Below are positions 19,141 through 63,091 of a stretch of DNA of 64,000 nt, piece after piece; the first letter of the stretch is position 1, and every line of letters begins with the position of its first letter. The stretch comes from Bacteroidales bacterium (lineage in GTDB: Bacteria; Bacteroidota; Bacteroidia; Bacteroidales; UBA932). The DNA lies in contig JAVBPG010000042.1 in the NCBI GenBank assembly GCA_031549685.1, positions 3,826 to 67,825 of the forward strand, read 5' to 3'. The position numbers were made by a program, and so were the translations under genes. The notes under the pieces were generated by a model. The model did not search any database and was not told where the DNA came from. It worked only from the letters and a program-made list of their open reading frames with translations.

Positions 19141-19165
19141 CATTCTCCATTCTCCATTCTCAATT
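19141..19165. repeat. Heptamer array (CATTCTC) x3.5, GGAGAAT family, reverse orientation
   Basis: The sequence is cattctccattctccattctcaatt, ending 6 nt before the radical-SAM ATG. Confidence 0.8.
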
Positions 19166-19170
19166 AGTCC

Positions 19171-20433
19171 ATGACGGAGGCGGTTTTAGATAAGCTCAAA
19201 ATTCTTGCTGAGGCGGCCAAGTACGATGTGTCCTGCGCATCGAGCGGGCACTCGCGCGGCAACAAGGACAAGGGCCTGGGCACGGCGCATGGCTGGGGCA
19301 TTTGCCACAGCTTTGCCGAGGACGGGCGCTGCGTGTCGCTGCTCAAGATCATGCTTACCAACAACTGCATTTACGACTGCGCCTACTGCGTAAACCGCCG
19401 CAGCAACGATGTTAAGCGCACCACCTTTTCGGTTACGGAGCTGGTGGAGCTCACCATGGAGTTTTACCGCCGCAACTACATCGAGGGCTTGTTCCTGAGC
19501 TCGGGCGTAGTGCGCAACCCCGACTACACCATGGAGCGCATGGTGCGCGTGGCAAAAGATTTGCGCGAGGTTCATCGATACAACGGCTACATTCACCTCA
19601 AGAGTATTCCTGGAGCGAGCCGCGAGCTCGTTACCCAGGCGGGCCTGTACGCCGACCGCCTGAGCGTGAATATTGAAATTCCTACCGAAGAAAATTTGAA
19701 GCTGCTGGCGCCCGAAAAGGATTTTCAGAGCGTGTTTCAGCCCATGTCGTTCATCTCGCAGGGAGCATTGGAAAGCGCCGAGGAGCGTCGTAAATACCGC
19801 CATGCCCCACGCTTTGCGCCTGCCGGACAAAGTACGCAGCTCATAGTTGGCGCTACGCCTGAAACAGATAAACAAATTTTGCAGCTAAGCACCTCGCTTT
19901 ACCAACGGCCAACGCTCAAGCGCGTGTACTACTCGGGCTACATTCCCGTTAACGCTAACGATAGCCGCCTGCCGGCCCTGACCACGCCGCCGCTGGTGCG
20001 CGAGCACAGACTCTACCAGGCCGACTGGCTCATGCGCTTCTACAGCTTCCGCGCCGACGAAATTGTGGACGACCGCAACCCCAACCTCGACCTGGAGCTC
20101 GACCCCAAGCTGACGTACGCCCTGCGCCACCCCGAAATGTTTCCGGTGGACATCAACCGCGCCGACTACGAAACCATTTTGCGCGTACCGGGCATTGGCG
20201 TTAAGTCCGCCAAGCTGATAGTAGCCTCGCGGCGTTACGGCAGGCTGAACAGCGAGCAGCTGCGCAAAATGGGCGTGGTAATTAAGCGGGCGCAGTATTT
20301 TATTACCTGCGGCGAGCTGGCGCCGTACTCCGTAAAGGAGGTGCGTCCCGAGTTCCTGCGCAAGCTGTTTCTGCCTCCAAAATCGGCAAAGGAAAAGAAG
20401 CTGGAGGGGCAGCTGCAGCTGCAGTGGGAGTGA
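19171..20433 (+). CDS. Putative DNA modification/repair radical SAM protein (TIGR03916-type)
   Basis: It has CIYDCAYCVNR (CxxxCxxC) and a C-terminal helix-hairpin-helix-like ILRVPGIGVKSAKLI. The N-terminal KYDVSCASSG is typical of this family. Confidence 0.85.
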   Translation: MTEAVLDKLKILAEAAKYDVSCASSGHSRGNKDKGLGTAHGWGICHSFAEDGRCVSLLKIMLTNNCIYDCAYCVNRRSNDVKRTTFSVTELVELTMEFYRRNYIEGLFLSSGVVRNPDYTMERMVRVAKDLREVHRYNGYIHLKSIPGASRELVTQAGLYADRLSVNIEIPTEENLKLLAPEKDFQSVFQPMSFISQGALESAEERRKYRHAPRFAPAGQSTQLIVGATPETDKQILQLSTSLYQRPTLKRVYYSGYIPVNANDSRLPALTTPPLVREHRLYQADWLMRFYSFRADEIVDDRNPNLDLELDPKLTYALRHPEMFPVDINRADYETILRVPGIGVKSAKLIVASRRYGRLNSEQLRKMGVVIKRAQYFITCGELAPYSVKEVRPEFLRKLFLPPKSAKEKKLEGQLQLQWE

Positions 20434-20440
20434 AATGTAA

Positions 20441-20490
20441 GTGGGCAGTTTGCAGTGGGCAATACGCAGTAGCAGTTTGCAGTAGGCAAT
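20441..20490 (+). repeat. Heptamer array of the GTAGGCA family (gtgggca gtttgca gtgggca atacgca gtagca gtttgca gtaggca)
   Basis: It has 7-bp periodicity and begins 8 nt after the radical-SAM stop codon. Confidence 0.8.
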
Positions 20491-20500
20491 ATGGGGCATT

Positions 20501-20714
20501 GTCATCCTGAGTGAAACGAAGGATCTCAAGTTGGTGCAATTTGTTCAAGTCCACGTCATTGCGAGGACGAGGAACGAGGAATCTCAAGCCTCTGTCCTGT
20601 CATTGCGGGCTTGATCCGCAATCCCCTCGATTAGGAGATCCCGAATCAAGTTCGGGATGACAGAAAGAGATGAGAGATTGCTTTGCCACGCCACGGCGTG
20701 ACTCGCAATGACGC
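20501..20714. repeat. Cluster of five GTCAT-family units (three forward, two reverse)
   Basis: The units start or end at 20501, 20555, 20599 (forward) and 20634-20661, 20674-20714 (reverse). Confidence 0.8.
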
Positions 20715-21520
20715 CCCTCAATTCAACAATTCAACAATTCAACAGTTCAACTCTTTTGAATTACTTCATCTACGATAAAACCTTTGAGGGCTTGCTGTCG
20801 TTGGTATTTGATGCCTACGACAGCAAAGTTTTTCCCGATAAAATACTATCGGAGCAGGAGGTGCTGCCCTTCTTTTCCGATGCTGTTTTTCGCGTAAAAA
20901 CCAACGAGGAGAAATCGCGGCGGGTGTGGGCCGGGTTGAAGAAGAAGATTTCAGCGGAGGCCATTCGCCAGCTGCCGGTGGCCTATATGAGCGAGCTGCC
21001 CGAGGCGGATATGCTGATACTCCGCTACATCTGCAAGGCCTTTGCCGGCAAGCAGTCCATTGAGGTTAACTTTGGCGATGACGACGTGCTGCAGCTGGGA
21101 AAAATTTACCGGAAGGTAAGCCGCGAGGCGGAGCGCGTGCGCATGTTCGTTCGCTTTCAAAAAACGGCCGACGGCATATTCTTCGCGCCCTTTGAGCCCA
21201 AGTACAACGTGCTTCCGCTGGTGGCCGACTTCTTCGAGGAGCGCTTCGCCGACCAGCCCTTCATCATTTACGATGTCAAGCGCCGCTACGGCTTGTACTA
21301 CGATTTGCAGAAAACGGTTGAGGTAAATTTCGACAAGCTTGATTTTGATTTTACCACCGGCAAACTGAACGACGAGCAGGCGGCGGCGGACGAAAAAATG
21401 TTTCAGCAGCTGTGGAAGGGCTACTTCAAGGCCATTGCCATAAAGGAGCGCGTAAATCCGAAGCTGCACCGGCAGAACTTGCCAAAGCGTTTTTGGAAAT
21501 TTCTGCCCGAAAAAAATTAA
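20708..21520 (+). CDS. TIGR03915/DUF4130-type putative DNA repair protein (partner of the radical SAM protein)
   Basis: The family-typical N-terminus YFIYDKTFEGLLSLVFDAY is present. The ATG at 20708 lies inside repeats, so the TTG at 20756 (MNYFIYDK…) may be the true start. Confidence 0.75.
   Translation: MTPLNSTIQQFNSSTLLNYFIYDKTFEGLLSLVFDAYDSKVFPDKILSEQEVLPFFSDAVFRVKTNEEKSRRVWAGLKKKISAEAIRQLPVAYMSELPEADMLILRYICKAFAGKQSIEVNFGDDDVLQLGKIYRKVSREAERVRMFVRFQKTADGIFFAPFEPKYNVLPLVADFFEERFADQPFIIYDVKRRYGLYYDLQKTVEVNFDKLDFDFTTGKLNDEQAAADEKMFQQLWKGYFKAIAIKERVNPKLHRQNLPKRFWKFLPEKN
20718..20752 (+). repeat. Octamer array (CAATTCAA) x4
   Basis: The sequence caattcaacaattcaacaattcaacagttcaac lies immediately upstream of, or inside, the 5' end of the DUF4130 gene. 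Confidence 0.8.
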
Positions 21521-21540
21521 CCCCCTGCCTCTGTCCTTGC

Positions 21541-21583
21541 GAAAAAGAAGCGGCGACACTGTAAATGCCGCCGCTTCTTTTGT
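21541..21583. terminator. Bidirectional intrinsic terminator between convergent genes
   Basis: The stem agaagcggcg / cgccgcttct is flanked by an A-run and a T-run. Confidence 0.8.
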
Positions 21584-21615
21584 GCATACTGCCAGCTGCT
21601 ACTGCCAGCTTCTTT

Positions 21616-22062: not shown

Positions 22063-22166
22063 AACGAAAATGTTTAAATTTGTTTTTGCAAATATACTGA
22101 TTGTTTTTGACTGGCAAATAGCGTTGGCAGCTGCCGGCATTCGGTAAGTAAATTATAGTAAACTAA

Positions 22167-22952
22167 ATGGATAGCGCAGAATCGGTAAAAAGAATAGCCT
22201 GCATAGGCAGCGGCGGCGTGGCCTCATCGCTGCTGCCGGCGCTGTACGGTGCAGGCTACAAAATTTCGCAGGTGTTTTCGCGTAACCTGCTCAGCGCTCA
22301 GGCGTTGGCTAAAGTGGTGGGGGCGTCGGCGGCGGGTAGCTTGGCCGAGCTTGATGCCAACGCCGATGTGTACATTATTACCGTGCCCGACGGCGAAATT
22401 GAAAACGTGCTGCGCGACGCCAAATTTGGCAACGGCATGGTGGTGCACACCTCGGGTTCCACCTCTATTGATGTTTTTCGAAAGTACAACATCGGGCGCT
22501 GCGGCGTGCTGTATCCGCTGCAAACGTTTAGCCGCCAGCGGGGCGTAAACTTTGCCCGCGTGCCGCTCTACGTCGAGGCGGGAAGCAGCAGCGATACCGT
22601 AGAGCTAATGTTCATGGCGCGCAAGCTCTCGGTCGATGTGTCGCAGGCCGACTCGGAAAAGCGCATGATGCTGCACATTGCGGCGGTTTTTGCCTGCAAT
22701 TTTACTAACCAAATGCTGGCCATATCATCGCAGCTAACCAGAGAGGCGGGGCTGAATTTTGCCTCGCTAAAACCGTTGATTCAGGAAACATTTGAAAAGG
22801 CCATGGCGGCCGACGACCCTGCTCAGGTGCAAACCGGCCCGGCGGTACGCGGCGACATGCTTACCGTGCAAAAGCACCTCGACGCCCTGGCAAGCTGGCC
22901 CGAGCTGCAGCAAATTTATAAGCTGGTGTCGGAGAGTATAATGGAGAATTGA
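22167..22952 (+). CDS. Rossmann-like plus DUF2520 domain protein
   Basis: It has an N-terminal IACIGSGGVASSL dinucleotide-binding motif and a C-terminal DUF2520-like TGPAVRGD. The stop codon is supplied by the heptamer array. Confidence 0.8.
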   Translation: MDSAESVKRIACIGSGGVASSLLPALYGAGYKISQVFSRNLLSAQALAKVVGASAAGSLAELDANADVYIITVPDGEIENVLRDAKFGNGMVVHTSGSTSIDVFRKYNIGRCGVLYPLQTFSRQRGVNFARVPLYVEAGSSSDTVELMFMARKLSVDVSQADSEKRMMLHIAAVFACNFTNQMLAISSQLTREAGLNFASLKPLIQETFEKAMAADDPAQVQTGPAVRGDMLTVQKHLDALASWPELQQIYKLVSESIMEN

Positions 22953-23075
22953 GAATTGAGAATGGAGAATTGAGAATGGAGAATTGAGAATGGAGAATGG
23001 AGAATGGAGAATGGAGAATGGAGAATGGAGAATGGAGAATGGAGAATGGAGAATGGAGAATGGAGAATGGAGAAT
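22943..23075 (+). repeat. 19 tandem heptamers (15 GGAGAAT and 4 TGAGAAT)
   Basis: I counted them directly. The array starts in the last codons of the DUF2520 gene. Confidence 0.95.
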
Positions 23076-23102
23076 GAATGTTATCAAGCATCTTTTATCG
23101 GT

Positions 23103-23151
23103 CGCAAATCGCAAATCATAAATCATAAATCATAAATCATAAATCGCAATC
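23103..23151 (+). repeat. 7 tandem heptamers (CGCAAAT x2, CATAAAT x4, CGCAATC)
   Basis: I counted them directly. The array ends at the base before the kdsC GTG start. Confidence 0.9.
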
Positions 23152-23673
23152 GTGAACTACAAAACCAAGCTGCACCACATAAAAGCCTTTGTATTTGATG
23201 TTGATGGCGTGTTTACCAACAGCCTTGTGCTGGCCATTCCCGGCGGCGATTTTTTGCGCATGCACAACACCAAGGATGGCTACGCGGTGAGCTACGCAAC
23301 CAAGCAGGGTTACCCCATAGGTATTATTACGGGCGGCGCCAGCGAGAGCATTCGCGAGCGCTTTAAGATGCTGGGGGTAACCGATGTGTACCTCGCATCG
23401 GGCTGCAAGCGCGATGATTTTCGCGACTTCTGCTTTAAGTACGATCTCAAGCCCGAGGAGGTGCTGTTTATGGGCGACGATATTCCCGATATGGAGGTGC
23501 TGACCATGTGCGGCGTGGCCACCTGTCCCGCCGATGCGGTGCACGAGGTGAAGGAGGCCTGCCACTACATTTCGGACCGGGACGGCGGCATGGGCTGCGT
23601 GCGCGATGTGATAGAGCAAGCGCTGCGCCTGCAAGGTAAGTGGAACTTGCAGAATGGGGTTAGTTCAATATAA
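23152..23673 (+). CDS. kdsC: 3-deoxy-D-manno-octulosonate 8-phosphate phosphatase (HAD-IIIA)
   Basis: The motifs are FVFDVDGVFT…GIITGG…FMGDDIPD…ISDRDGGMGCVRD. The start is GTG. Confidence 0.9.
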   Translation: MNYKTKLHHIKAFVFDVDGVFTNSLVLAIPGGDFLRMHNTKDGYAVSYATKQGYPIGIITGGASESIRERFKMLGVTDVYLASGCKRDDFRDFCFKYDLKPEEVLFMGDDIPDMEVLTMCGVATCPADAVHEVKEACHYISDRDGGMGCVRDVIEQALRLQGKWNLQNGVSSI

Positions 23674-24387: not shown

Positions 24388-24666
24388 ATGAAGTTCACGT
24401 CTGTTTTTGGAGGAATTATTTTGGGCGTTCTTACCTTCTTTTTTGGAGGATGGAAAATTGCCTGGGGAGCAAGCGACATCGTTTTTAACTACGTCAACAG
24501 GGTGGGCCTGCAGGGCGACGGGCTTATTTTTGCCATCAACGGCAAGTACTACGGCCTGGTCAACACGCACCGCATGTTCGACTACCCGTTCTTTGCCTGG
24601 ATACTATTTTTTGGCTCAATTGCGTTTTTTGTCATTGCCATAAGGTCGCTCTTTAAAGGCCGGTAG
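24388..24666 (+). CDS. Hypothetical small membrane protein
   Basis: The 92-aa ORF has two hydrophobic segments. I did not recognise a family. Confidence 0.5.
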   Translation: MKFTSVFGGIILGVLTFFFGGWKIAWGASDIVFNYVNRVGLQGDGLIFAINGKYYGLVNTHRMFDYPFFAWILFFGSIAFFVIAIRSLFKGR

Positions 24667-25453: not shown

Positions 25454-25520
25454 GTTTAAATGGCTTAGAAACTGTTTAAAGTTGTTTCAGGTTGTTTGAA
25501 ATGGTTTGATGTTGTTGCTC
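25454..25520 (+). repeat. Array of roughly 10-bp period (gtttaaagtt gtttcaggtt gtttgaaatg gtttgatgtt …)
   Basis: The GTTT-headed decamers lie in the thioesterase/YihY intergenic region. Confidence 0.7.
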
Positions 25521-28840: not shown

Positions 28841-28943
28841 GGGGCAATGAGCGAAGGCTATCCCTCCCGCAACCCTATTACGGTGGTGGCCACATGGTAG
28901 CATAATATGGGGGTATAAAAAATCGTAAATTCTAAAATTGTAA

Positions 28944-29672
28944 ATGAAAAAACTCTTTTTGGCCCTAACCCTAATTGCAGGTCTTATGTCATGCACTGAA
29001 AAAAATATTCCCCAAGGCGATGCGTTCAAAACCTCCATGGGCGATTTGTACGTGTACCACGTGGGGCACGGCTCGGTAATGCTTACGCTGGGCGACAAGG
29101 TTATTCAGGTTGACCCGTACTCCGCGCAGGCCGACTACGACACGCTTCCCAAGGCCGACCTGGTGCTCATAACGCACGAGCACTCCGACCACCTGGACAG
29201 CGCCGCCCTGGCCAAAACCAGAAAGGAGGGAGCGCAAATTATTACCACCCCAACGGTGGCGCAAATTCTGCCTGATGCGACCGTGCTGGCCAACGGTGAA
29301 AAAACGGCGTGGAGCGGCATTGCCATTGAGGCTGTGCCGGCCTACAACGTAGCGCACATGCGCCCCGACGGGCAGCCGTTTCATCCCAAAGGTGTGGGCA
29401 ATGGCTACGTACTCTCCTTCGGCAACTTCAAGTTGTACCTCGCCGCCGATACCGAAAATATTGAGGAAATGGGCGCGCTGAAGGATATCGATGTGGCGTT
29501 CCTGCCCAAAAATTTGCCCTACACCATGACGGACGAAATGTTTGTTGCGGCCGCCAAATCCTTTAAGCCCAAGGTGCTGTATGTGTACCACTACTTTGAG
29601 CTGGACAACATTGATGCCATAAAAAAGGAGCTGGCCCCGGAGGGCGTCGAGCTGAGGGTGTTTAAGAAGTAG
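28944..29672 (+). CDS. MBL-fold metallo-hydrolase (lipoprotein)
   Basis: It has the lipobox LIAGLMSC and the motif THEHSDHLD. Confidence 0.85.
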
Positions 29673-29683: not shown

Positions 29684-30418
29684 ATGATTGAAGTAGTTCC
29701 CGCCATAGACATCATCGACGGCAAGTGCGTGCGCCTTACCAAGGGCGACTACGCGCAGAAAAAGGTGTACAACGAAGACCCGCTGGAGGTGGCGAAATCC
29801 TTTGAGGGGGTTGGGCTGCGGCGCCTGCACGTGGTGGATCTGGACGGCGCCAAGGCGCAGCACATTGTAAACCACAAGGTGCTCGAAAAAATTGCCGCCA
29901 AAACCGCTCTGGTAGTCGATTTCGGCGGAGGGCTGAAAAGCTCGGACGACCTGCGCATAGCCTTTGAGTGCGGCGCGCGCATGGTTACGGGCGGCAGCAT
30001 TGCGGTTAAAAACCCCGGTGAGTTTACCGGCTGGATTGAAAAATTCGGAGGCGAAAAAATTATTCTCGGCGCCGATGTGAGCGGGGAAAAAATTGCCGTA
30101 AGCGGCTGGCAGGAGGGCACCGATTTAGACCTTCTTCCCTTCATAAAATCGTACGCGGCAAAGGGCATTACGCAGGTAATCTGCACCGATATAGGCAGGG
30201 ACGGCATGCTGCAAGGCCCCAACATTGCGCTGTACAAAAAAATAGCGGAGGCATTTCCGGACTTGCATTTAGTAGCAAGCGGGGGAGTGTCGGCCATGGC
30301 CGACATTGAGGCGCTGGACAAGAACGGCCTGCGCTCGGTCATCGTGGGCAAGGCCATTTACGAGGGACGGATTTCGATGGAGGAGCTGGGGAAAATGGCA
30401 GTAGGCAGTAGGCAGTGA
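29684..30418 (+). CDS. hisA: ProFAR isomerase HisA
   Basis: [20 protein letters not shown]…[10 protein letters not shown] is typical of HisA. The last codons are encoded by the GTAGGCA array. Confidence 0.9.
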
Positions 30419-30443
30419 AGACAAGTAGGCAATAGGCAATGGG
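30397..30443 (+). repeat. GTAGGCA-family array/composite element
   Basis: The sequence ggcagtaggcagtaggcagtgaagacaagtaggcaataggcaatgg overlaps the hisA stop. Confidence 0.85.
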
Positions 30444-30454
30444 GTGGGTAAACC

Positions 30455-30497
30455 TTTAAACTTTGAATCTTTGAATTTTGAATTTTGAATTTTGAAT
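30455..30497 (+). repeat. Heptamer array (TTTGAAT), about 5-6 units
   Basis: The sequence ctttaaactttgaatctttgaattttgaattttgaattttgaat ends 10 nt before the hisIE ATG. Confidence 0.85.
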
Positions 30498-30507: not shown

Positions 30508-31098
30508 ATGGTTGATTTTGCAAAAATGGATGGCCTGGTGCCCGCGGTGGTGCAGGATAGCGCTACGGGCAAGGTGCTTATGGTGGCGTTTATGAACGAG
30601 GAGGCGTACCGGAAAACGCTCGAAACAAAGCTGGTAACCTTCTACAGCCGCACCAAGCAGCGCCTGTGGACCAAGGGCGAGGAGAGCGGAAATTTCCTTG
30701 ATCTGCTGAGCCTTACCGAGGACTGCGACCACGATACGCTGTTGGTAAAAGCCAAGCCCCGCGGCGTGGTGTGCCACACCGGCGCCGACACCTGCTTTGG
30801 CGAAAAAAATGAGAGCGGAATTTTATTTCTCGACTACCTGCAAAACCTCATTGCCACGCGCAAAAAGGAAATGCCCGAGGGCTCGTACACCACCAAGCTT
30901 TTTCAAAAAGGCGTCAATAAAATTGCGCAGAAGGTGGGCGAGGAGGCCGTGGAGCTGGTCATTGAGGCCAAGGATAGCAACGAGGAGTTGTTTCTGGGCG
31001 AAGCCGCCGACCTCATGTTCCACTTCCTGGTGCTGCTTACGCAAAAGGGCTACACGCTCGGCGATGTGGTAGGCGTACTCGAAAAACGGCATAAATAA
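30508..31098 (+). CDS. hisIE: Bifunctional phosphoribosyl-AMP cyclohydrolase / phosphoribosyl-ATP pyrophosphatase
   Basis: The HisI part is LVPAVVQD…WTKGE(E)SGN…DCD(H)D and the HisE part is KIAQKVGEEAVE…EAADLMFH. Confidence 0.9.
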   Translation: MVDFAKMDGLVPAVVQDSATGKVLMVAFMNEEAYRKTLETKLVTFYSRTKQRLWTKGEESGNFLDLLSLTEDCDHDTLLVKAKPRGVVCHTGADTCFGEKNESGILFLDYLQNLIATRKKEMPEGSYTTKLFQKGVNKIAQKVGEEAVELVIEAKDSNEELFLGEAADLMFHFLVLLTQKGYTLGDVVGVLEKRHK

Positions 31099-39980: not shown

Positions 39981-39990
39981 AAAAGGTGCA

Positions 39991-39998
39991 CAAAGGTA
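39991..39998 (-). promoter_or_regulatory. Candidate -7 box TACCTTTG for tRNA-Pro
   Basis: It matches TAnnTTTG 10 nt upstream of the tRNA 5' end. Confidence 0.5.
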
Positions 39999-40046
39999 GC
40001 ACTTTTTTTCAAATACAAAATCGTGGTGCACAACTTTTACGCTGCA

Positions 40047-40079
40047 ATAAAAAAGGAGCGGGATTTGTTGTCCCGCTCC
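40047..40079 (-). terminator. Intrinsic terminator (minus strand) after the small ORF
   Basis: The stem ggagcggga / tcccgctcc is followed on the minus strand by tttttt. Confidence 0.7.
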
Positions 40080-40089
40080 GAAAAAGTTG

Positions 40090-40173
40090 CTACTTCTTGC
40101 CCGCCTTTTTGCTGTCCTTTTTAGGCTCGGCAGCCTTGCTACCGGTCGCTTTCTTGCCACATCCGCATGCCAT
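40090..40173 (-). CDS. Candidate small protein, 27 aa (MACGCGKKATGSKAAEPKKDSKKAGKK)
   Basis: The ATG-to-TAG ORF is below the track cutoff. It has its own downstream terminator and Lys/Ala-rich composition like the neighbouring gene. No homology evidence is available. Confidence 0.3.
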   Translation of the reverse strand: MACGCGKKATGSKAAEPKKDSKKAGKK

Positions 40174-40445
40174 GGTGTTAATTTTTTGTTAAGGTTGGTT
40201 TCCAGTATTACAGCCCGAAACCTTTGCTGTTTTTTAGCCGCTGTTTACATTTAGAAATCAAAAAGCATTTAATCCCGCAGGGCGGGAGAGACACAGAGAG
40301 TACAACAGAAAAAACTCTCCTGCCTTGCAGTGCAAGCGACAACTCGTTAATATACAAAGTGCTAAAATGGTGCAGAGAAAAACCGAAGCAAATGTATGCT
40401 TCTAAATGTTCTCTGTGGCTCCGAGGTTAAAGTTTAAACGGCTTC

Positions 40446-41570
40446 TTAAAGTCCGGTGTCATCCTCGTCGTCCTCATCCTCCTCATCCTCGCTGCTGCGA
40501 CGTTTTTTCGGCTTTTCCTCCTCTTCGTCGTCCTCTGCTGCAATTTCGTCGTCGCCGCTGGCCGGGGTATCAATGATGATGTCGTCGTCGTCGTCCTTTG
40601 AGCGCGCATCAATTTTTACATCCACCTTAATGAGGTAGGTGGCGTTCTCGGTATCGAGCATGATGGCGTAAAAGAAGTCGGTTTCGCTCTTGTTGATTTT
40701 CATCACGTAGTCGCTCCAGCCAAAGGGGTACTTTTGCTTGAGCAGCTCCAGCAGCTCGGGCGACAGGTTTTTGTAGCTAACCACCACGCGGCGCTTGCCG
40801 GTGCCCACGGTTACACGGGGTAAGCTGCTCTTTGCCTCCTCCTGTGGCGGTTGCGGCGCAGCCTTGGGTTGGGGTTTTACCTCCTCTTTTTTAGCAGCCT
40901 TGGGTTGGAGGGCCGGTTGTACCTTGACCGGCTTTTCAGCCGCTTTTCCGGGTGCCTTCTTGGGTGGCGGTGGGGCAACTACTTTTTTACTTACTTCGGC
41001 AGCGGGCTTGGTAGTTTTTGCCGGAGCAGCTACTTTTTTGCTTGCTGCTACCTTGGAACTTTCTTTTTTTAGCGCTGTATTTTTGGTCGGGGCAATTGCC
41101 TTCTTTACGGGTGCAACTTTCTTTGCAGGTGTACTCTTCTTCACGGGAACCATAGCTTTTTTAGCGGCTGCCTTTTTTACGGGTGCAACCACTTTTTTAA
41201 CGAGAGCCTTTTTTAAAGGCTTAATAATTTTGACTACTTTTTTTACGGGTGTGGCCGTTTTTTTTACCGCCACCTTTTTGGCGGGTGCCAGGGCTTTCTT
41301 GGCTACCACCTTTTTTACGGGTACCGCCTTTTTGCTTACCACTTTTTTGGCCGGAGCTGCTACCTTTTTAGCGATAACTTTCTTGGCAGCCGCCTTTTTT
41401 GCGGGCACCAACTTTTTGGCCGCAACTTTTTTTGCGGCCACCGCAACCTTTCTGGCTACGGGCTTAGCTGCGCTTTTTTTTGCCGGCGCTGCTTTTATCG
41501 CTTTCTTGGGCGCAACTTTAGCTGCCTTCTTGGCGGGGGCTTTAGCTGCCGTTTTTTTCTTCACAGCCAT
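40446..41570 (-). CDS. Histone H1-like Lys/Ala-rich protein with a globular C-terminal domain and an acidic tail
   Basis: The first ~230 aa are (A/V/P)KK-type repeats. These are followed by …VVSYKNLSPELLELLKQKYPFGWSDYVMKINK…YLIKVDVKID and a D/E-rich C-terminus. Confidence 0.7.
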   Translation of the reverse strand: MAVKKKTAAKAPAKKAAKVAPKKAIKAAPAKKSAAKPVARKVAVAAKKVAAKKLVPAKKAAAKKVIAKKVAAPAKKVVSKKAVPVKKVVAKKALAPAKKVAVKKTATPVKKVVKIIKPLKKALVKKVVAPVKKAAAKKAMVPVKKSTPAKKVAPVKKAIAPTKNTALKKESSKVAASKKVAAPAKTTKPAAEVSKKVVAPPPPKKAPGKAAEKPVKVQPALQPKAAKKEEVKPQPKAAPQPPQEEAKSSLPRVTVGTGKRRVVVSYKNLSPELLELLKQKYPFGWSDYVMKINKSETDFFYAIMLDTENATYLIKVDVKIDARSKDDDDDIIIDTPASGDDEIAAEDDEEEEKPKKRRSSEDEEDEDDEDDTGL

Positions 41571-41777: not shown

Positions 41778-42482
41778 TTAGCATGGCTGGTGGCCATGCC
41801 CGGGCGATTCGTCCAGCAGGTCGGGGCGGAGGCGGGCGGTGCGCTCGAGCGCCTGCTCCTCGCTCCACCTTTCAATCTCCTTAAAGTTACCCGACAGCAG
41901 CACCTCGGGCACCTTCCAGCCGTTGAACTCCGCGGGGCGCGTGTACACAGGCGCCGACAGCAGGTTGTCCTGAAACGAGTCGCTTAGCGCCGAAGTTTCG
42001 TCGGAGATGGCGCCGGGCAGTAGCCGCACCACGCTATCGACCACCACCGCGGCGGCCAGCTCGCCGCCCGAAAGCACGTAGTCGCCCACCGAAATTTCGC
42101 GCGTAACCAGGTGCTCGCGCACGCGGTGGTCAACTCCCTTGTAGTGGCCGCACAAAATGATGATGTTGTTAAGTGTTGATAAGTTATTGGCTATTAGTTG
42201 GTTATGCTGATCTCCGTCGGGTGTCATAAAAATAACCTCGTCGTACTCGCGCTCCGACTTCAGCCGGTTGACGAGGTTGAAGATGGGCTCCACCTTCATT
42301 ACCATGCCGGCGCTTCCGCCAAAAGGGTAGTCGTCCACCGTGCGGTGCTTGTCGGTGGTGTAGTCGCGAATGTTGTGCACGTGAATCTCGACTACGCCCT
42401 TGGCCCGCGCCCTTTTGATGATGGAGTGCGCAAAGGGGCTGTCGAGCAGCTCGGGCAAAACGGTAAGTATATCGATACGCAT
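41778..42482 (-). CDS. trmD: tRNA (guanine37-N1)-methyltransferase
   Basis: [11 protein letters not shown]…[10 protein letters not shown]…[13 protein letters not shown] are typical TrmD motifs. Confidence 0.95.
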
Positions 42483-42499: not shown

Positions 42500-42540
42500 G
42501 ATTAGTGAAGAGTGGCGAGTGATTAGTGATTAGTAGTCAG
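42500..42540 (+). repeat. Heptamer array of the GATTAGT family
   Basis: The units are gattagt gaagagt ggcgagt gattagt gattagt agtcag. Confidence 0.75.
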
Positions 42541-42567: not shown

Positions 42568-42588
42568 CTGGTCGCTGGTCGCTGGTTA
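42568..42588 (+). repeat. Heptamer array (CTGGTCG) x3
   Basis: The sequence is ctggtcgctggtcgctggtta. Confidence 0.7.
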
Positions 42589-51432: not shown

Positions 51433-51513
51433 TTATGTGCGATATGCGATACGCAATACCGCGACGTGCGAATTTTCTTACACCGCAAGCCGCATTGTCG
51501 CGTGTCGGGATTA

Positions 51514-57747: not shown

Positions 57748-57782
57748 CCCTAACCCCTAATTACTAATCCCTAATCCCTAAA
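57748..57782 (+). repeat. Heptamer array (CCCTAAT/TACTAAT) x5, the reverse complement of the GATTAG(G/T) family
   Basis: The units are ccctaac ccctaat tactaat ccctaat ccctaaa, ending 4 nt before the ATG. Confidence 0.85.
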
Positions 57783-57786: not shown

Positions 57787-58203
57787 ATGCTGCAACGTAT
57801 TCAGTCGGTTTTTTTGACCTTGGCGCTGGTGCTGCAGGGTTTGATTTTTGTATTTCCCTTTGCCAAAGTAGCCGATGCGCAGGGCAACGAAACGCTGCTT
57901 ACCTGTGCCGACTTTCCGCTGATTCTTTTTCAGCTGCTGACGTTTACCTTTACGCTGGTTACCATTTTCTTTTATAAAAACAGGAAGCGGCAAATCCTTT
58001 TTTGCAACATCAACATTTGGCTGCTCATAGCCTACGTGCTGGTGCTGTACTGGCAGGCTTACGGCCTGTCGCAAGCAGCGGCGGCCATGCAGTTCAAGCT
58101 GGGCATGATCATTCCCTGGCTGGCGGCCATACTTATCTACTTAGCCAAGCGCGGCATTGCCAAGGACGAGGCGCTGGTAAAATCGCTGGACAGGTTGAGG
58201 TAA
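57787..58203 (+). CDS. DUF4293 family membrane protein
   Basis: It begins MLQRIQSVFL and has four predicted TM segments. Confidence 0.7.
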   Translation: MLQRIQSVFLTLALVLQGLIFVFPFAKVADAQGNETLLTCADFPLILFQLLTFTFTLVTIFFYKNRKRQILFCNINIWLLIAYVLVLYWQAYGLSQAAAAMQFKLGMIIPWLAAILIYLAKRGIAKDEALVKSLDRLR

Positions 58204-58252: not shown

Positions 58253-58267
58253 ATGACAAAATCAGAA

Positions 58268-59629
58268 TTACTGCCACACCACCTTGGCGGCTTTGGCAAT
58301 GTTTTTCGGGATGTCGGTGTTGTTTATTTTTCCGCCGAAGAGCTCGCTGCCGGCGCCGATGGCGTACACGGGCACCATGGTTCCGGTGTGGCCAAAGGTG
58401 CTGTACCCCGCGCCTACGCGGGCGCTTACCATGCGCATAACCTCCTTGCTAAGGTTATTTTTGTTTTTTACCTTGCAGGGCGAGTCCCCGGTTTGCGGCT
58501 CCTTTTCCACGTTGTCGGCAAACATTTTCCTCATCTTCTGCTCCTCGCCGTAGCTGAGCGTTAGCTTGTAGTCGTCCTGCAGCAGCTGCCTAAATTCGTT
58601 GTACGATATGGGGTTGCCGAGCCGCTCTACCAACTTTTCTACCGACTTTGCCTGCTGCGATATGCCCATAATGGTTACCAGCTTATCCTCGCCCGAGCCA
58701 ATGCCCAGACCGCCGGTTTCGTGGTCGGCGGTAACAATGATGAGCGTTTCGTTGGGGTGCTTTTTGTAAAAATCAAGGGCTACCTGCACGGCGTCCGACA
58801 TATCTATTACCTCGCCCACCATGGTTGCGGCATCGTTGTCGTGCGAGGCCCAGTCTATCTTTCCTCCCTCTACCATCAGGAAAAATCCCTTGCCGTTCAT
58901 CAGCTTTTCAATGGCAATTTCGGTGGTTTGCCTCAGCGTGTAGTCGTCGGCCGACTTGTCTATCACGTAGGGGTAGGCTTTGGCCGGCTTGTTTTCGGCC
59001 TGCAGCAAAATATTTTTGGGGGCGGAGGAAGCTTTGCAGTCGGCCAGGCTGCGCGAAACCTTGTAGCCGCTTTGCTCCACCAGCGTATAAATGCTTTCCT
59101 GCTGGTCATCTTTTCCGAGGGGATTTATAAATCCGGCTCCCGAAAAAAAGTCGAAGTTGCTCTTGGCCAAATCCTGCGCAATTTCGTAGTACATATTGCG
59201 GCTGGTCTGGTGCGCGTAGAACGCCGCCGGCGTGGCGTGGTCAATGCTTACGCTGGTGCTGATGCCCACCCTGTAGCCTTTTTCTTTGAGGCGCTGCGCA
59301 ATGCTTTTAAAGTTTTGCTTGGCTTCGGCATCCACCCCAATGCGGCCGTTGCGCGTTTTGCTACCGCAGGCCAGCGCCGTGCCGGCCGCGGCCGAGCAGG
59401 TAACGAGATTGCTGGCCGAGTAGGTGGTGGCAAATCCGGTTACGGGAAAGCCCGAAAACGTGAGGTTGCTTGAGCCGTGCTTGCCCTCCTTGGCCGCCAG
59501 GTAGTCCTCGGTAAGCGATACGGAGCCGAAGCCCATGCCGTCGCCGATGAAAAAGAAAATGTACTTGGCCTGCGCAAAGCTAAGCGTGGCGCAGAGTATG
59601 AGGGTCAGCAGGAGCGATATTTTTTTCAT
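58268..59629 (-). CDS. Alkaline phosphatase (PhoA family)
   Basis: The motifs are FFIGDGMG…, …DHATPAAF… and …ADHETGG…H(T)G. Confidence 0.9.
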   Translation of the reverse strand: MKKISLLLTLILCATLSFAQAKYIFFFIGDGMGFGSVSLTEDYLAAKEGKHGSSNLTFSGFPVTGFATTYSASNLVTCSAAAGTALACGSKTRNGRIGVDAEAKQNFKSIAQRLKEKGYRVGISTSVSIDHATPAAFYAHQTSRNMYYEIAQDLAKSNFDFFSGAGFINPLGKDDQQESIYTLVEQSGYKVSRSLADCKASSAPKNILLQAENKPAKAYPYVIDKSADDYTLRQTTEIAIEKLMNGKGFFLMVEGGKIDWASHDNDAATMVGEVIDMSDAVQVALDFYKKHPNETLIIVTADHETGGLGIGSGEDKLVTIMGISQQAKSVEKLVERLGNPISYNEFRQLLQDDYKLTLSYGEEQKMRKMFADNVEKEPQTGDSPCKVKNKNNLSKEVMRMVSARVGAGYSTFGHTGTMVPVYAIGAGSELFGGKINNTDIPKNIAKAAKVVWQ

Positions 59630-59640
59630 GATATGCGAGT

Positions 59641-59711
59641 TTGTAAAGTTTATATAGTCTATAAAGTTTCTAAAGTTTGTAAAGTGTATAAAGTTTCTGA
59701 AGTTAAAGAGT
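59641..59711. repeat. Nonamer array (TTNTAAAGT), about 8 units
   Basis: The units are ttgtaaagt ttatatagt ctataaagt ttctaaagt ttgtaaagt gtataaagt ttctgaagt taaagagt. The array starts 12 nt upstream of the phosphatase start codon. Confidence 0.85.
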
Positions 59712-59721
59712 TGTCATCCAC

Positions 59722-59749
59722 AATTCTCCATTCTCCATTATTCATTCTC
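59722..59749. repeat. Heptamer array (CATTCTC family) overlapping the gamma-CA stop
   Basis: The units are aattctc cattctc cattatt cattctc. Confidence 0.8.
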
Positions 59750-60259
59750 TTTGTACCAATCTTTATACATCAGGTAGCCCTGCGCATTCTTTACAATCAT
59801 TTTTTCGACGTCCTCGGGGGCAATGCTTTTTACCTTTTTGGCTGGTACGCCGGCGTAAATGCTGTAGGGCTCCAGCTGTGCGTTGCTCAGCACCACCGAG
59901 CTTGCGGCAATGATGCTGTTGTCGGCAACGGCGGCGTTGTCCATGAGCGTGGAGCCCATGCCCACCAGCACGTTGTGGCCCACCGTGGCGCCGTGAATAT
60001 TGCACAGGTGCCCCACCGACACGTAGTCGCCAATGCGCACCACCGAGCGCTCGTAAAGCGTGTGCAGCACCGAGTTGTCCTGTATGTTGACGTTGTTGCC
60101 GATGATGATGGGGTTGACATCGCCGCGCAGCACTGCGCCGTACCAAATGCTGCAGTTGTCGCCAATGGTTACATCGCCGATAAGGACGGCGGTTTCGGCA
60201 ATAAAACAGTTTTTGCCGATTTGCGGGGTCTTACCGCGAAGCGTTTTTATTAAAGCCAT
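59738..60259 (-). CDS. Gamma-class carbonic anhydrase / hexapeptide-repeat family protein
   Basis: It has left-handed beta-helix hexapeptide repeats, and …VLRGD…I.IG…NIQDNSVLH… is typical of the YrdA/PaaY family. Confidence 0.9.
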   Translation of the reverse strand: MALIKTLRGKTPQIGKNCFIAETAVLIGDVTIGDNCSIWYGAVLRGDVNPIIIGNNVNIQDNSVLHTLYERSVVRIGDYVSVGHLCNIHGATVGHNVLVGMGSTLMDNAAVADNSIIAASSVVLSNAQLEPYSIYAGVPAKKVKSIAPEDVEKMIVKNAQGYLMYKDWYKENE

Positions 60260-60265
60260 GTTGTT

Positions 60266-60300
60266 GAATTACAAATTACGAATTACGAATTACGGTATTG
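60266..60300. repeat. Heptamer array (GAATTAC) x4-5
   Basis: The units are gaattac aaattac gaattac gaattac ggtattg, starting 6 nt upstream of the gamma-CA start. Confidence 0.85.
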
Positions 60301-60344
60301 TTAAGTTAATATAGATTCCATGATTTACAGCACTTGATGGTTAT

Positions 60345-60429
60345 GTCATCCTGAGCAAGGCGAAGGATCTCAAGTTCGCACAGGGCTTCATATTCACAAC
60401 ATGAGATTCTTCGCTTCGCTCAGAATGAC
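60345..60429. repeat. GTCAT-family long palindrome
   Basis: gtcatcctgagcaaggcgaaggatctcaag pairs with …catgagattcttcgcttcgctcagaatgac. Confidence 0.8.
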
Positions 60430-60474
60430 AAGGGTTCGATTTTTATTAAAATCTACACCAAATTAACAATACCC

Positions 60475-60495
60475 GAATTACAAATTACGAATTTA
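60475..60495. repeat. Heptamer array (GAATTAC) x3
   Basis: The units are gaattac aaattac gaattta. Confidence 0.75.
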
Positions 60496-60524
60496 GCCAG
60501 ATGCAGGGGGGCCATGCTGCTCAG

Positions 60525-60589
60525 CATTGCCGATTGCCTACTGCTACTGCCTACTTGTCTTTACTGCCTACTGCAAGCTGCCTACTTGT
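60525..60589 (-). repeat. GTAGGCA-family composite element (minus orientation), abutting the folE stop
   Basis: The reverse complement reads caagtaggcagcttgcagtaggcagtaaagacaagtaggcagtagcagtaggcaatcggcaatg. Confidence 0.85.
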
Positions 60590-61194
60590 TAATGCATCCT
60601 TGCGCCCGTCATCAGAATAAACTCCTCGCGGGTTTTTTGCTGCGTCATAAAGGGGCCGGTAAAGGCCGATGTGGTGGTTACGGAGTTCTGCTTTTCCACG
60701 CCGCGCATCTGCATGCACATGTGCGCCGCCTCAATAATTACGGCCACGCCAAGCGGTTGCAGCGCCTCCTGAATGCAGTCGCGGATTTGCACTGTGAGCC
60801 TTTCCTGCACCTGCAGGCGGCGGGCAAAGGCATCGACCACGCGGGTAATTTTGCTCAGGCCGGTAATGTAGCCGTTGGGGATGTAGGCCACGTGCGCCTT
60901 GCCGTAAAAGGGCAGCAGGTGGTGCTCGCACATGGAGAACAGCTCAATGTCTTTTACCAAAATCATCTGCTTGTACTCCTCCTTAAACTTGGCGGAATTG
61001 ATGATATCGAAGGGATTTTGGGCGTAGCCCTGCGTCATAAAAAGCCGCGATTTGGCAACGCGCTCGGGCGTTTTTTGCAGGCCCTCACGCGCGCTGTCCT
61101 CGCCCATCAAGTCCAGAATGGCCTTCACATGCTTGCCGATGGCGTCAACTTTTTCTTGGTTGAAAGAATCGATTCTTTCGTAGTGTTCTGTCAT
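60589..61194 (-). CDS. folE: GTP cyclohydrolase I
   Basis: …[20 protein letters not shown]… and …HMCMQMRGV… are typical of FolE. Confidence 0.95.
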
Positions 61195-61238
61195 TTTTCG
61201 TATCTTTGGGTTACAAATTTACAAAAATAAATCAGCAA

Positions 61239-61883
61239 ATGCAGCTTTTGGTTGTAGCCGCCACCGAGCTTGAATTAAGCGCTGTGAAAAAGCGTTTAGC
61301 GAATGTTCCTAACGTTGATTTTGCAGCTACAGGTGTGGGCATGTTGGCTACTGCGTATACGCTTACCAAGTTGCTTTCGCAAAAAAAATACGATTGGGTT
61401 TTTAATGTAGGAATCGCCGGAGCATTTTCCGAAAAAATGAGATTGGGTGAGGTGGTAGCTGTTAAGAATGAGTCGATAGGTGACAGTGGTGTTGAAAATG
61501 CTGAGGGGGTTATAGCTGCTTATCCAAAAGAATTGCAAAGTGATGTGGTGTTAAATTGCCCCTATGTAAACGAATTTTCTACTTTGGAAAACGTTCAGCA
61601 AGCAAATGGCACAACTGTAAACCTGTTGACCGAAAATGAAATGAGAGTTGCGCAGCGTAGCGGTTCTGCCGATGTGGAAACAATGGAAGGCGCCGCGTTT
61701 TTTTACGTTTGTAAAAAAGAAAATGTAAATTTTTTGCAGCTAAGAGGCATTTCAAATCGAGTGGGGGAGCGCGATAAGGCGAAGTGGAAAATAGCAGAAG
61801 CGATGGAGAGTGTGAGTGATTTATTAGTACGTTGTCATTCCGCGCTTGATGCGGAATCCCCAAATCGGGAGATTGCGGATTAA
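61239..61883 (+). CDS. mqnB: Futalosine hydrolase-like nucleosidase (PNP_UDP_1 family)
   Basis: It has MQLLVVAATELE…GVGMLATAY…GIAGAF…VETMEGAAF and is adjacent to mqnD. The last ~17 codons are read from a GTCAT repeat unit. Confidence 0.7.
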   Translation: MQLLVVAATELELSAVKKRLANVPNVDFAATGVGMLATAYTLTKLLSQKKYDWVFNVGIAGAFSEKMRLGEVVAVKNESIGDSGVENAEGVIAAYPKELQSDVVLNCPYVNEFSTLENVQQANGTTVNLLTENEMRVAQRSGSADVETMEGAAFFYVCKKENVNFLQLRGISNRVGERDKAKWKIAEAMESVSDLLVRCHSALDAESPNREIAD

Positions 61884-62058
61884 GTCCGCAATGACAGCGC
61901 GCTATATAAGATGTTGTAAAACAAAGTGTTGATGTTGCCATGCTGAGCGAAGCGAAGCAATCTCAGGCTGTGCCAAAATGATAGCTGTACGAACTTGAGA
62001 TGCTTCGCTTCACTCAGCATGACAAAGATTGCTTCGTCGTACCTCCTCGCAATGACGC
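61834..62058. repeat. Cluster of five GTCAT-family units
   Basis: The units lie at 61834-61861 (+), 61868-61895 (-), 61937-61967 (+), 61994-62023 (-) and 62024-62058 (-). Confidence 0.8.
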
Positions 62059-62143
62059 CACGATTGAGCGCGCTGTTTTAAATTTGTAAATTAACTACGT
62101 TGAGCTCGCAAGCTCGGTTGTACTTTGTAAATTGTCAATTAGA

Positions 62144-62977
62144 ATGACTCTCGGATTTTCTCCCTGCCCCAACGATACCTTCATATTTCACGCCCTGCTG
62201 CACGGCCTGGTCGATACCGAGGGCCTGGCCTTTGAGGCGCACATCGCCGATGTGGAGGAGCTCAACACGCTGGCCCTGCAGGGTAAGCTGGAGGTTACCA
62301 AGCTCAGCTACGCGGCCTACACGCAGGTGGCCGGCAGCTACTTAATTCTCGATTCGGGCGGCGCGCTCGGGCGTGGCAACGGTCCGCTATTGGTTACAAA
62401 AAATGCAACGGAAATTACCGCTGATGCCCGCGTGGCCATTCCCGGAAAATATACCACGGCGGCCTTTTTGCTGCGCCTGGCCTTTCCGCAGCTGCGGCGT
62501 TGGGAGGAAATGCTTTTTTCGGATATTCCGCAGGCCGTTTTGCAGGGTCGGGCCGACGCCGGGGTGCTCATTCACGAGAGCCGCTTTACCTACGCGCAGC
62601 AGGGCTTGCGCCTGCTGGCCGACCTGGGCGCGGAGTGGGAAAAGCGCAGCGGGCTACCCATTCCGCTGGGTTGCATTTGCGTAAGGCGAAACCTGCCGCT
62701 TGAGCAGCAGCGGGCCTTTGCCCGGGTGCTGCGCCGCAGCGTGGAGTACGCGTTGCGCAATCCTGCCGAAAGTCGTACATTTGTCAAGCGCCACTCGCAG
62801 GAGTTGAGCGACGAGGTTATTGATAAGCATATCGCTATGTTTGTTAATGATTACACTTTGTCTCTTGGTGTGGAAGGAAAAAATGCCGTAGAAAGATTTT
62901 TTGCGGAAGCGACAAAGCGAGGTGTAGTGAAGGAAATGCCGGAGGATGTTTTTTTAGAAAACAGTGAAGACAAGTAG
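62144..62977 (+). CDS. mqnD: 1,4-dihydroxy-6-naphthoate synthase
   Basis: MTLGFSPCPNDTFIFHALLHG…LSYAAY…LDSGGALG is typical of MqnD. Its TAG stop lies in the GTAGGCA element. Confidence 0.85.
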   Translation: MTLGFSPCPNDTFIFHALLHGLVDTEGLAFEAHIADVEELNTLALQGKLEVTKLSYAAYTQVAGSYLILDSGGALGRGNGPLLVTKNATEITADARVAIPGKYTTAAFLLRLAFPQLRRWEEMLFSDIPQAVLQGRADAGVLIHESRFTYAQQGLRLLADLGAEWEKRSGLPIPLGCICVRRNLPLEQQRAFARVLRRSVEYALRNPAESRTFVKRHSQELSDEVIDKHIAMFVNDYTLSLGVEGKNAVERFFAEATKRGVVKEMPEDVFLENSEDK

Positions 62978-63040
62978 GCAGTTTGCAGTAGCAGTAGGCA
63001 GTAAAGACAAGTAGGCAGTGGGCAATCGGCAATGTAGTGC
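62964..63040 (+). repeat. GTAGGCA-family composite element
   Basis: The sequence is gtgaagacaagtaggcagtttgcagtagcagtaggcagtaaagacaagtaggcagtgggcaatcggcaatg. Confidence 0.85.
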
Positions 63041-63063
63041 AGCATGTTAACCATGCACTTGGC

Positions 63064-63091
63064 TGTATTTGTAATTCGTAATTCGTAATTG
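63064..63091 (+). repeat. Heptamer array (GTAATTC) x4
   Basis: The units are tgtattt gtaattc gtaattc gtaattg, ending 2 nt before the hldD ATG. Confidence 0.85.

Follow-up and report, generated by a model that had tools for sequence, protein, structure and literature searches.

Heptameric tandem arrays at gene junctions in a Bacteroidales genome: new members of a known bacterial repeat class

Why should tandem arrays with a 7-nt period sit at the stop and start codons of housekeeping genes? The question is raised by a 64,000-nt stretch of the genome of an uncultured, gut-type Bacteroidales bacterium (GenBank assembly GCA_031549685.1, contig JAVBPG010000042.1, positions 3,826 to 67,825), referred to below as the window. 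An initial annotation, made from the letters alone, had described at least ten intergenic regions largely filled by such arrays, had called them not normal for bacterial genomes, and had argued for function or targeted insertion rather than slippage. Our analysis identifies the arrays of the window as new members of a known heptamer-repeat class, with new units, in a new lineage and with two arrays per spacer. The account that we consider probable is that they are slippage-born simple sequence repeats (SSRs), of the class described as long SSRs (LSSRs) or short tandemly repeated repetitive sequences (STRRs). They would then represent a genome-wide mutational feature of the lineage, and not purpose-built junction devices.

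Tandem Repeats Finder and an independent self-match period scan agreed on period-7 arrays at all positions given in the initial annotation. With the more degenerate arrays included, they yielded 15 arrays spread over nine intergenic regions. Under the strict criterion of the period scan, the window held 11 period-7 runs against a mean of 0.08 in block shuffles. Every other period from 3 to 15 gave 0–2 strict runs, with the exception of period 14, which is 2 × 7. Ten of the 11 strict runs fell within the intergenic DNA, which makes up 10.9% of the window; the eleventh overlapped the last codons of hisA. Seven of the array-bearing spacers separate co-directional genes and two separate divergent ones. 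Heptamers mostly fill only three spacers, DUF2520-kdsC (82%), hisA-hisIE (72%) and mqnD-hldD (60%), and take up 13–31% of the remaining six, so the original count of largely filled regions has to be reduced. The same families recur in the window, GGAGAAT at three loci, GTAGGCA at four to five, and GTAATTC at three, and at six junctions the arrays stop 3–10 nt ahead of start codons. The unit families, their coordinates and the layout, in which one array adjoins the upstream stop and another runs up to the downstream start, were largely as first described. The bipartite layout was confirmed at the co-directional junctions for which it had been claimed, apart from two corrections: the A+T-rich array ahead of the phosphatase gene has period 9, and that ahead of DUF4130 has period 8 and lies within the called open reading frame (ORF). 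Pfam agreed with the gene names across the gene map, though for ‘gamma-CA’ and ‘hldD’ the matches were to generic families alone, hexapeptide-repeat and NAD-dependent epimerase. Rfam covariance models returned only two tRNAs at gathering score over the whole window, and the arrays were not covered by any known RNA family.

The arrays in the window are real, because independent assemblies match the hisA/hisIE junction at 100% identity. Two short-read Logan assemblies from two samples (L001 and L002) contain this junction; L001 covers both of its arrays, and L002 starts at window position 30450 and therefore includes the TTTGAAT array only. Other short-read contigs terminate at arrays, among them the contig with the DUF2520 protein. 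Such breaks are what an assembly or sequencing artefact would have in its favour. Against it stand the identical junction, the array phase, which matches real gene ends, and the presence of identical families in hundreds of unrelated public contigs. We therefore regard an artefact, a danger that the initial annotation had itself raised, as extremely unlikely.

The largest array reveals something of its origin. This AATGGAG/AATTGAG array (GGAGAAT/TGAGAAT, 19.6 copies, 137 nt, 22940..23076, plus strand) opens with the end of the DUF2520 gene, whose four final codons and TGA stop (ATA ATG GAG AAT TGA) make up the initial units. The encoded protein ends with ...SESIMEN* in the window, ...SDYIVKN* in the relative L003 and ...SENIMKK* in L006. 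From this comparison, units one and two of the array (AATGGAG, AATTGAG) are the native codons ATG GAG AAT TGA. The C-termini show head-to-tail amplification, in place, of the gene end and its stop codon, and for this array it contradicts the earlier preference for targeted insertion over slippage. The stop-bearing TGAGAAT variants cluster toward the 5′ end. The second array of the spacer, AAATCAT/AAATCGC (23106..23145, plus strand), carries TAA in all three frames and ends 6 nt ahead of the kdsC-like GTG at 23152. At the hisA-hisIE junction, a GGCAGTA/GTAGGCA array (30397..30438, plus strand) covers the last seven codons and the TGA of hisA, and a TTTGAAT array (5–6 copies, 30454..30497, plus strand) ends 10 nt ahead of the hisIE ATG at 30508. 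The HisA tail has nine array-derived residues (GKMAVGSRQ*) in the window versus five (SRIVN*) in L003, a gain of four, showing an array that overwrote and lengthened the C-terminal tail.

Orthologous loci were taken from five relatives, with protein identities from 79% to 50%. The nearest relatives of the DUF2520 protein are labelled ‘MAG: Prevotellaceae bacterium’, ‘Bacteroidales bacterium’ or ‘Bacteroidia bacterium’. The DUF2520-kdsC spacer measures 199 nt in the window, 164 nt of it arrays, versus 10 nt in L006, 15 nt in L010 and 22 nt in L008. In L003 it measures 169 nt, contains an element resembling a MITE (miniature inverted-repeat transposable element) and has no heptamer array. The hisA-hisIE spacer of L003 has 25 nt with 2.4 copies of ATTCGTA, and that of the window 89 nt with GTAGGCA and TTTGAAT. 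The arrays of the window have thus inflated spacers from 10–25 nt, the length in relatives, up to ~ 200 nt. Three relatives (L003, L010 and L011) possess their own, different heptamer arrays at other junctions, e.g. 4.4 copies of TTTGAAA ahead of hisA in L003, or AATTATG, TGAACAA and TGAAACC in L011, where one pair repeats the stop-array/array-start layout. L006 has degenerate heptamer-like repeats only, such as four copies of TCAATTG. On the sequences compared, heptamer arrays are found lineage-wide and single arrays are not conserved between relatives.

How might such arrays come to lie on codon boundaries? In the slippage account that we favour, the arrays would arise by replication slippage, a process said to prefer units of 7 nt, and occasional recombination between arrays would add to their formation. 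They would be born in minimal intercistronic spacers and would nucleate on gene ends. As 7 is not a multiple of 3, any array inside a reading frame would be lost, and arrays would survive only outward from a stop codon and up to the translation-initiation region. This loss of in-frame arrays would explain why the remainder seem to ‘sit on’ stops and starts. The strands would be sorted by selection at the mRNA level. Directly past stops, purine- and G-rich, C-poor strands would be tolerated as sense. Ahead of starts, G-poor, structure-free and usually stop-bearing sense strands would be tolerated and perhaps mildly useful, given that the organism starts translation without Shine-Dalgarno pairing. 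The likely effect would be that of passive, unstructured intercistronic spacers.

Placement on codon boundaries proved non-random and strand-specific both in the window, as first proposed, and in public data. An exact 20-mer of GGAGAAT matched at least 119 loci (L013–L131) in public contigs, and a 20-mer of GTAATTC at least 120 loci (L267–L386) in unlabelled metagenome contigs. The flanking genes were assigned by a simple ORF heuristic and are approximate, and the counts and hosts given here for these two families hold among the matches listed. The hosts of GGAGAAT belonged to Bacteroidota, Chloroflexota, Planctomycetota, Cyanobacteria, Acidobacteriota, Clostridia, Fibrobacterota, Patescibacteria, Campylobacterota and others. 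Sixty-seven of 125 GGAGAAT arrays followed a co-oriented ORF, with the stop at the array edge (median distance 0). A stop lay within 20 nt for 38/67 arrays in the GGAGAAT sense versus 9/56 in the ATTCTCC sense (p = 5e-6), and of the 16 in the GGAGAAT sense that lay between co-directional genes, 15 were nearer the stop. The stop-bearing variant TGAGAAT was enriched towards the 5′ side, the TGAGAAT:GGAGAAT unit counts being 50:106 in the 5′ third of the arrays and 17:101 in the 3′ third. Moreover, unrelated genes ended ...M-E-N-TGA within the array, as DUF2520 does in the window. Arrays in the GAATTAC sense, which is stop-free and adjoins stop codons in the metagenomes, began 0–6 nt past stops in 37/60 cases and were nearer the stop in 20 of 21 co-directional spacers. 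Ending 1–12 nt ahead of an ATG was seen for 12/30 arrays in the GTAATTC sense versus 2/36 in the opposite sense (p = 8e-4).

An inverted ATTCTC partner lay downstream of 21 of the 125 GGAGAAT arrays and upstream of none. Outside the window, such convergent GGAGAAT...ATTCTCC pairs could form hairpins. We also observed that some of these pairs are edged by T and A runs in the manner of bidirectional terminators, e.g. in L074. In viral contigs, two scrambled heptamers of GGAGAAT composition formed arrays at 103 and 9 loci, and GGAGAAT itself at 23. The idea of GGAGAAT as a special, horizontally spread unit was therefore rejected. Families of the window were found beside public arrays in unrelated organisms (GGATTAG in L075, GAATTAT/GAATCGT in L068, CTGCCTA in L058 and GGCAGAA in L126), from which we conclude that compound arrays of at least two families per spacer are common. 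A literature search with the unit strings GGAGAAT, ATTCTCC, AATGGAG and GAGAATG found nothing relevant.

As RNA, the arrays are predicted to be essentially structure-free. The minimum free energy was −0.3 kcal/mol for the 137-nt GGAGAAT array in the sense orientation, 0 for the CCCTAAT leader and −0.6 kcal/mol for the GTAATTC leader. Folding z-scores of array spacers lay between −1.06 and +3.08, most of them not below 0, and those of array-free spacers between +1.0 and −2.7, three of six being below −1.8. The suggestion that the A+T-rich arrays provide unstructured leaders is in line with a predicted structure of ~ 0 kcal/mol. Array-free leaders contained 36% A, 30% T, 18% C and 16% G, the genome having 27% G; G made up 6–11% of pre-start arrays and 43% of post-stop units, the latter with 12% C. 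The GGAGAAT family follows this pattern, lying in its G-rich sense past two stops and as CATTCTC ahead of the start at 19171. Shine-Dalgarno-like cores occurred in 0/8 array leaders and 7/50 others, in agreement with the initial annotation, which took the organism not to rely on such sites. No strong terminator hairpin was found inside the array-bearing co-directional junctions, and clear ones lie elsewhere (e.g. 18993–19034). Because these junctions lack terminators, the arrays probably lie inside operon transcripts. Post-stop arrays were also considered as terminators in their own right, a role rejected for the window, where they contain neither a hairpin nor a T-run.

The initial annotation had further proposed that units bearing a stop triplet close all three frames and insulate translation. 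Its arithmetic of 7 versus 3 is correct, and for pre-start arrays the proposal gained support, three-frame stop closure within 42 nt of the start being found in 5/8 array leaders versus 3/29 of the leaders without arrays whose spacers measure 42 nt or more (p = 0.006). For post-stop arrays it failed, since these lie in stop-free orientations, the GAATTAC sense next to stops included. Stop-bearing units occurred in five of six pre-start families, with 46% expected from leader composition, and in one of three post-stop families; this stop content is not significantly above expectation. GGAGAAT is stop-free in all six frames, so an insulator is indeed not the whole explanation, as had been conceded at the outset. 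The GGAGAAT array, open in six frames, also yields a spurious 119-aa ORF (22767–23126, minus strand). Four sigma-70-like TTGAGA-N17-GAGAAT matches within it (22949–23012) were treated as a by-product of periodicity, Bacteroidota promoters being outside the scan.

These RNA properties bear on the reading of the arrays as selected cis-acting mRNA modules for polycistronic translation independent of Shine-Dalgarno sites. Pre-start arrays would be unstructured, pyrimidine- or A-U-rich standby sites or sites for S1 or cold-shock-type proteins, their three-frame stops would clear stray ribosomes and permit termination-reinitiation a few nt from the start, and the purine-rich arrays past stops would serve as inert spacers, loading neither Rho nor ribosomes. 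Strand-specific placement in the window and in unrelated organisms, the downstream-only inverted partners, the excess of three-frame closure, minimum free energies of ~ 0 and the finish 3–10 nt ahead of starts at six junctions all fit it, and MacGregor (2015, PMC4679880) suggested S1, cold-shock proteins (Csp) or CsrA for TAACTGA arrays at the same position. Nevertheless, orthologous junctions lack array conservation, with spacers of 10–25 nt in relatives, the unit sequences are diverse, the largest array was amplified from coding sequence, scrambled heptamers form arrays too, and unit stop content does not significantly exceed expectation. Rehm et al. (2015, PMC4692102) sought a regulatory role for related repeats and found none. 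We consider the proposal as a whole unlikely.

Copying between loci has to be weighed as well. The folE-side and mqnD-side junction cassettes (60475–60588 and 62964–63090) lie 2.4 kb apart in inverted orientation; stretches of 29, 20, 16 and 14 nt are identical in the two and follow one another in the same order. On the folE side, a GTAGGCA element (60535..60586, minus-strand sense) begins 3 nt past the folE stop and is a paralogue of 62964–63035. It is followed by a GTAATTC array, also in minus-strand sense, in two parts (60475–60494 and 60266–60294), the nearer of which ends 6 nt ahead of the gamma-CA-like ATG at 60259. A MITE-like insertion (60295–60474), edged by the inverted 11-mers GGTATTGTTAA/TTAACAATACC, splits this array (60266..60494), and array units flank it on both sides. 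On the mqnD side, a GTAGGCA element (62973..63024, plus strand) has the mqnD TAG stop (62975–62977) inside its first unit, and 3.4 copies of GTAATTC (63067..63090, plus strand) end 3 nt ahead of the epimerase (hldD-like) ATG at 63094. The GTAGGCA elements at 60535..60586 and 62964–63035 have common blocks of 29/29, 16/16 and 14/14 nt. GTAGGCA elements in general also have non-periodic signatures in common, CAGTRAAGACAAGTAGGCA four times and GGCAATNGGCAATG at the 3′ end. Complete junction cassettes of the window are paralogues of one another. Furthermore, a near-identical TTCGTAATTCGTAATTGAT motif stands at differing junctions in the window and in L003.

The cassettes, the shared signatures and the TTCGTAATTCGTAATTGAT motif suggest dispersed modules, copied between junctions by recombination, gene conversion or MITE-like hitch-hiking and not born locally. 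MITE-like elements beside or inside arrays, at 20501 and 60345–60429, point the same way. However, the DUF2520 array stems from a native gene end, and the arrays themselves are direct repeats without a hairpin, terminal inverted repeats, target-site duplications or a transposase. The MITE at 60295–60474 breaks up its array instead of carrying it. As a general explanation we find such copying decidedly unlikely.

We must also note what weighs against slippage as we propose it. Pure slippage in place leaves unexplained why a small set of unit families turns up at several junctions of one 64-kb stretch, and why two complete junction cassettes (60475–60588 and 62964–63090) are paralogous; from both observations, copying between loci has to take place to some extent. 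Strong and valid across phyla, the strand rule is also what a functional element would display, and three-frame closure is commoner in array leaders than in ordinary ones (p = 0.006). A comparison of copy number between strains had been recommended at the outset, and the sole junction covered by other assemblies, hisA/hisIE, was identical in them, with no copy-number polymorphism seen there, so slippage activity is inferred. Exact-protein look-ups aimed at further DNA of this genome or at copy-number variants gave, for DUF2520, only a short-read contig ending at the array, and no record for folE and two proteins close to the window start. The preference of slippage for 7-nt units is a hypothesis from the literature (Mrazek 2007, as represented in citing papers), and the evidence from this genome comes from 64 kb, the only part of it covered.

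Could the arrays act as DNA? They might be non-B or bendable tracts with an influence on replication or transcription, or their inverted pairs might be substrates for inversion. The folE-mqnD segment is flanked by inverted array pairs, other phyla often have convergent GGAGAAT...ATTCTCC pairs among the matches listed, and related G-rich heptamers form G-quadruplexes in vitro (PMC4692102). The units of the window have no G-runs of three or more, hence a G-quadruplex is impossible, and Rehm et al. saw no leading/lagging strand bias (PMC4692102). The strand rule follows the direction of the flanking genes, not the position in the window. A role at the DNA level seems very unlikely to us.

The window arrays belong to the known heptamer class because all of its defining features except G-quadruplex potential are present. 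Within one genome, cyanobacterial STRRs comprise several heptamer families scattered over many intergenic loci. Rehm et al. (2015, PMC4692102) described heptameric GGGAATC in Xanthomonas and GGGGA(C/T)T in Nostoc/Anabaena, with ~ 90% of the repeats in intergenic DNA and mostly between ORFs that run the same way. The G-rich strand was the coding strand 0–50 bp from the stop, overlap with the stop codon included, and the complementary strand was found up to 50 bp upstream of starts. The repeats formed inverted pairs, were transcribed, differed in length and sequence among close relatives, and lay near ordinary metabolic genes (PMC4692102). The window agrees with that description in its tandem 7-nt units of at least three copies, far above chance; in their bias to non-coding DNA, mainly between co-directional ORFs; in the G/purine-rich sense at or over stops and the complementary sense ahead of starts; in the recurrence of units at many loci, here within 64 kb; and in orthologous junctions of related genomes that hold different arrays or none. 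Unlike the repeats of Rehm et al., the window units have no GGG run, which excludes a G-quadruplex; many families co-exist, several of them A+T-rich and often with two arrays per spacer, and the host lineage, within Bacteroidales, makes no use of Shine-Dalgarno sites.

MacGregor (2015, PMC4679880) reported TAACTGA arrays directly upstream of starts in marine Beggiatoaceae, cyanobacteria and five Bacteroidetes. The author noted that the long arrays of Gramella and Aequorivita share spacers with other heptamer arrays, and that close relatives have short, repeat-free spacers. The pre-start arrays of the window resemble these in having one orientation a few nt upstream of starts, and TAACTGA units also carry forward stops. 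In contrast, tandem TAACTGA is absent from the window, and post-stop arrays do not form a class in that study. According to Mrazek (2007), as cited by Rehm et al. and MacGregor, heptamers dominate long SSRs, and slippage was hypothesised as their origin. Several dispersed intergenic heptamer families with slippage as the proposed origin link the window to these LSSRs and to the STRRs; its lineage and units differ, and the classical accounts, in the form quoted by later papers, are silent on codon placement. The opinion that such arrays are not normal for bacterial genomes is therefore not supported: heptamer arrays are, in the accounts quoted by these papers, the commonest long SSR in many bacteria, and their placement has been published (PMC4692102, PMC4679880).

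Other repeat types were rejected. Phase-variation (contingency) repeats are also short, slippage-prone tandem units, of 1–5 nt (occasionally 7), and sit in the reading frames of surface or virulence genes or between the elements of their promoters, whereas the window arrays lie outside frames, between housekeeping cistrons (his, folE, mqnD, kdsC-like, trmD). Repetitive extragenic palindromic sequences and bacterial interspersed mosaic elements (REP/BIME) and MITEs are intergenic like the arrays, and often lie directly past stops in operons, but they are palindromic hairpins. The window arrays are direct repeats with predicted energies of ~ 0 kcal/mol and z-scores near 0 or above. True MITE-like palindromes, with the core GTCATCCTGAGCGAAGCGAAGGATCTC and its complement, are separate elements in the window (8056–8143, 20501–20700, 60345–60429 and 61920–62023). 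A CRISPR-like reading was rejected on anatomy.

The remaining arrays are as follows. Upstream of the radical-SAM gene, 3.6 copies of CATTCTC (19141..19165, plus strand), the G-free orientation of the GGAGAAT family, end 5 nt ahead of the ATG at 19171 and follow the strong terminator hairpin at 18993–19034. A degenerate GTAGGCA/GTGGGCA/GTTTGCA array (20440..20488, plus strand) begins 6 nt past the radical-SAM stop (20431–20433), and MITE-like palindromic elements come after it. The period-8 array, 4.1 copies of CAATTCAA (20719..20751, plus strand), lies within the mechanically called DUF4130 ORF, of which the in-frame TTG at 20756, 4 nt downstream of the array, may be the true start. In the divergent trmD/DUF349 spacer, five degenerate copies of ACTAATC (GATTAGT on the plus strand; 42500..42534, minus-strand sense) have their edge 17 nt upstream of the trmD start at 42482 (minus strand), and 2.7 copies of CTGGTCG (42568..42586, no strand assigned) lie off codon boundaries as the weakest member. 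A CCCTAAT/CCCTAAC/ACTAATC array (4.9 copies, 57748..57781, plus strand) ends 5 nt ahead of the DUF4293 ATG at 57787. Two minus-strand arrays separate the hexapeptide/gamma-CA-like gene from the alkaline phosphatase gene: 3.9 copies of GGAGAAT (59723..59749) cover the last codons and the TAA (59738–59740) of the former, and 7.4 copies of the period-9 unit, in sense TTAGAAACT/TTATAGACT (59638..59704), end 8 nt ahead of the ATG of the latter at 59629.

Single GTAGGCA units were also found on or directly after three more stop codons (24663, 31099 and 56671), one of them being the TAG of a small membrane-like ORF (24388–24666); this suggests a favoured stop context that could seed GTAGGCA arrays. 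Weaker degenerate repeats of period 7–10 (GTTTAAA, TATCGCA etc.) adjoin other starts on their upstream side at 3066–3091, 25473–25516, 28917–28952 and 51480–51513, beyond the range reported in the initial annotation. Apart from the arrays, we observed an ORF (40446–41570, minus strand) of histone-H1-like look, with a lysine/alanine/proline-rich AKKA-repeat N-terminal region (DNA periodicities of 33, 36 and 84 nt), a middle part that looks conserved and a strongly acidic tail at the C-terminus. The spacer 39981–40445 contains a possible 27-codon lysine-rich mini-ORF MACGCGKKATGSKAAEPKKDSKKAGKK (40100–40190, minus-strand sense), followed by a terminator-like hairpin.

For annotation, the arrays matter because they yield spurious ORFs (22767–23126, minus strand), change real C-termini (DUF2520, HisA), mask true start codons (DUF4130) and fragment short-read assemblies. 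A bolder view would make them orientation-coded, cross-phylum intercistronic mRNA modules that provide Shine-Dalgarno-independent coupling of cistrons. If so, post-stop arrays rich in purines would go unseen by Rho and ribosomes, and pyrimidine-rich or stop-bearing pre-start arrays would recruit S1/cold-shock-type proteins or the 30S subunit and end stray ribosomes in every frame. The signature would be the strand rule of GGAGAAT/ATTCTCC and GAATTAC/GTAATTC together with the 21:0 asymmetry of inverted pairs among the matches listed. We judge this view rather unlikely; a genuine translation-related function of the pre-start arrays is possible. The question is now sharper and testable, i.e. whether a filter of mutation plus selection acts alone, or whether the arrays have a translation-related function. 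In terms of generality, the stop/start and strand rule of G-rich heptamers, described in two lineages, extends to two families without G-quadruplex potential, GGAGAAT from named organisms of many phyla and GTAATTC from unlabelled metagenome contigs. With the window, a poorly studied class of repeats gains several A+T-rich unit families and a further host lineage, uncultured and from Bacteroidales.

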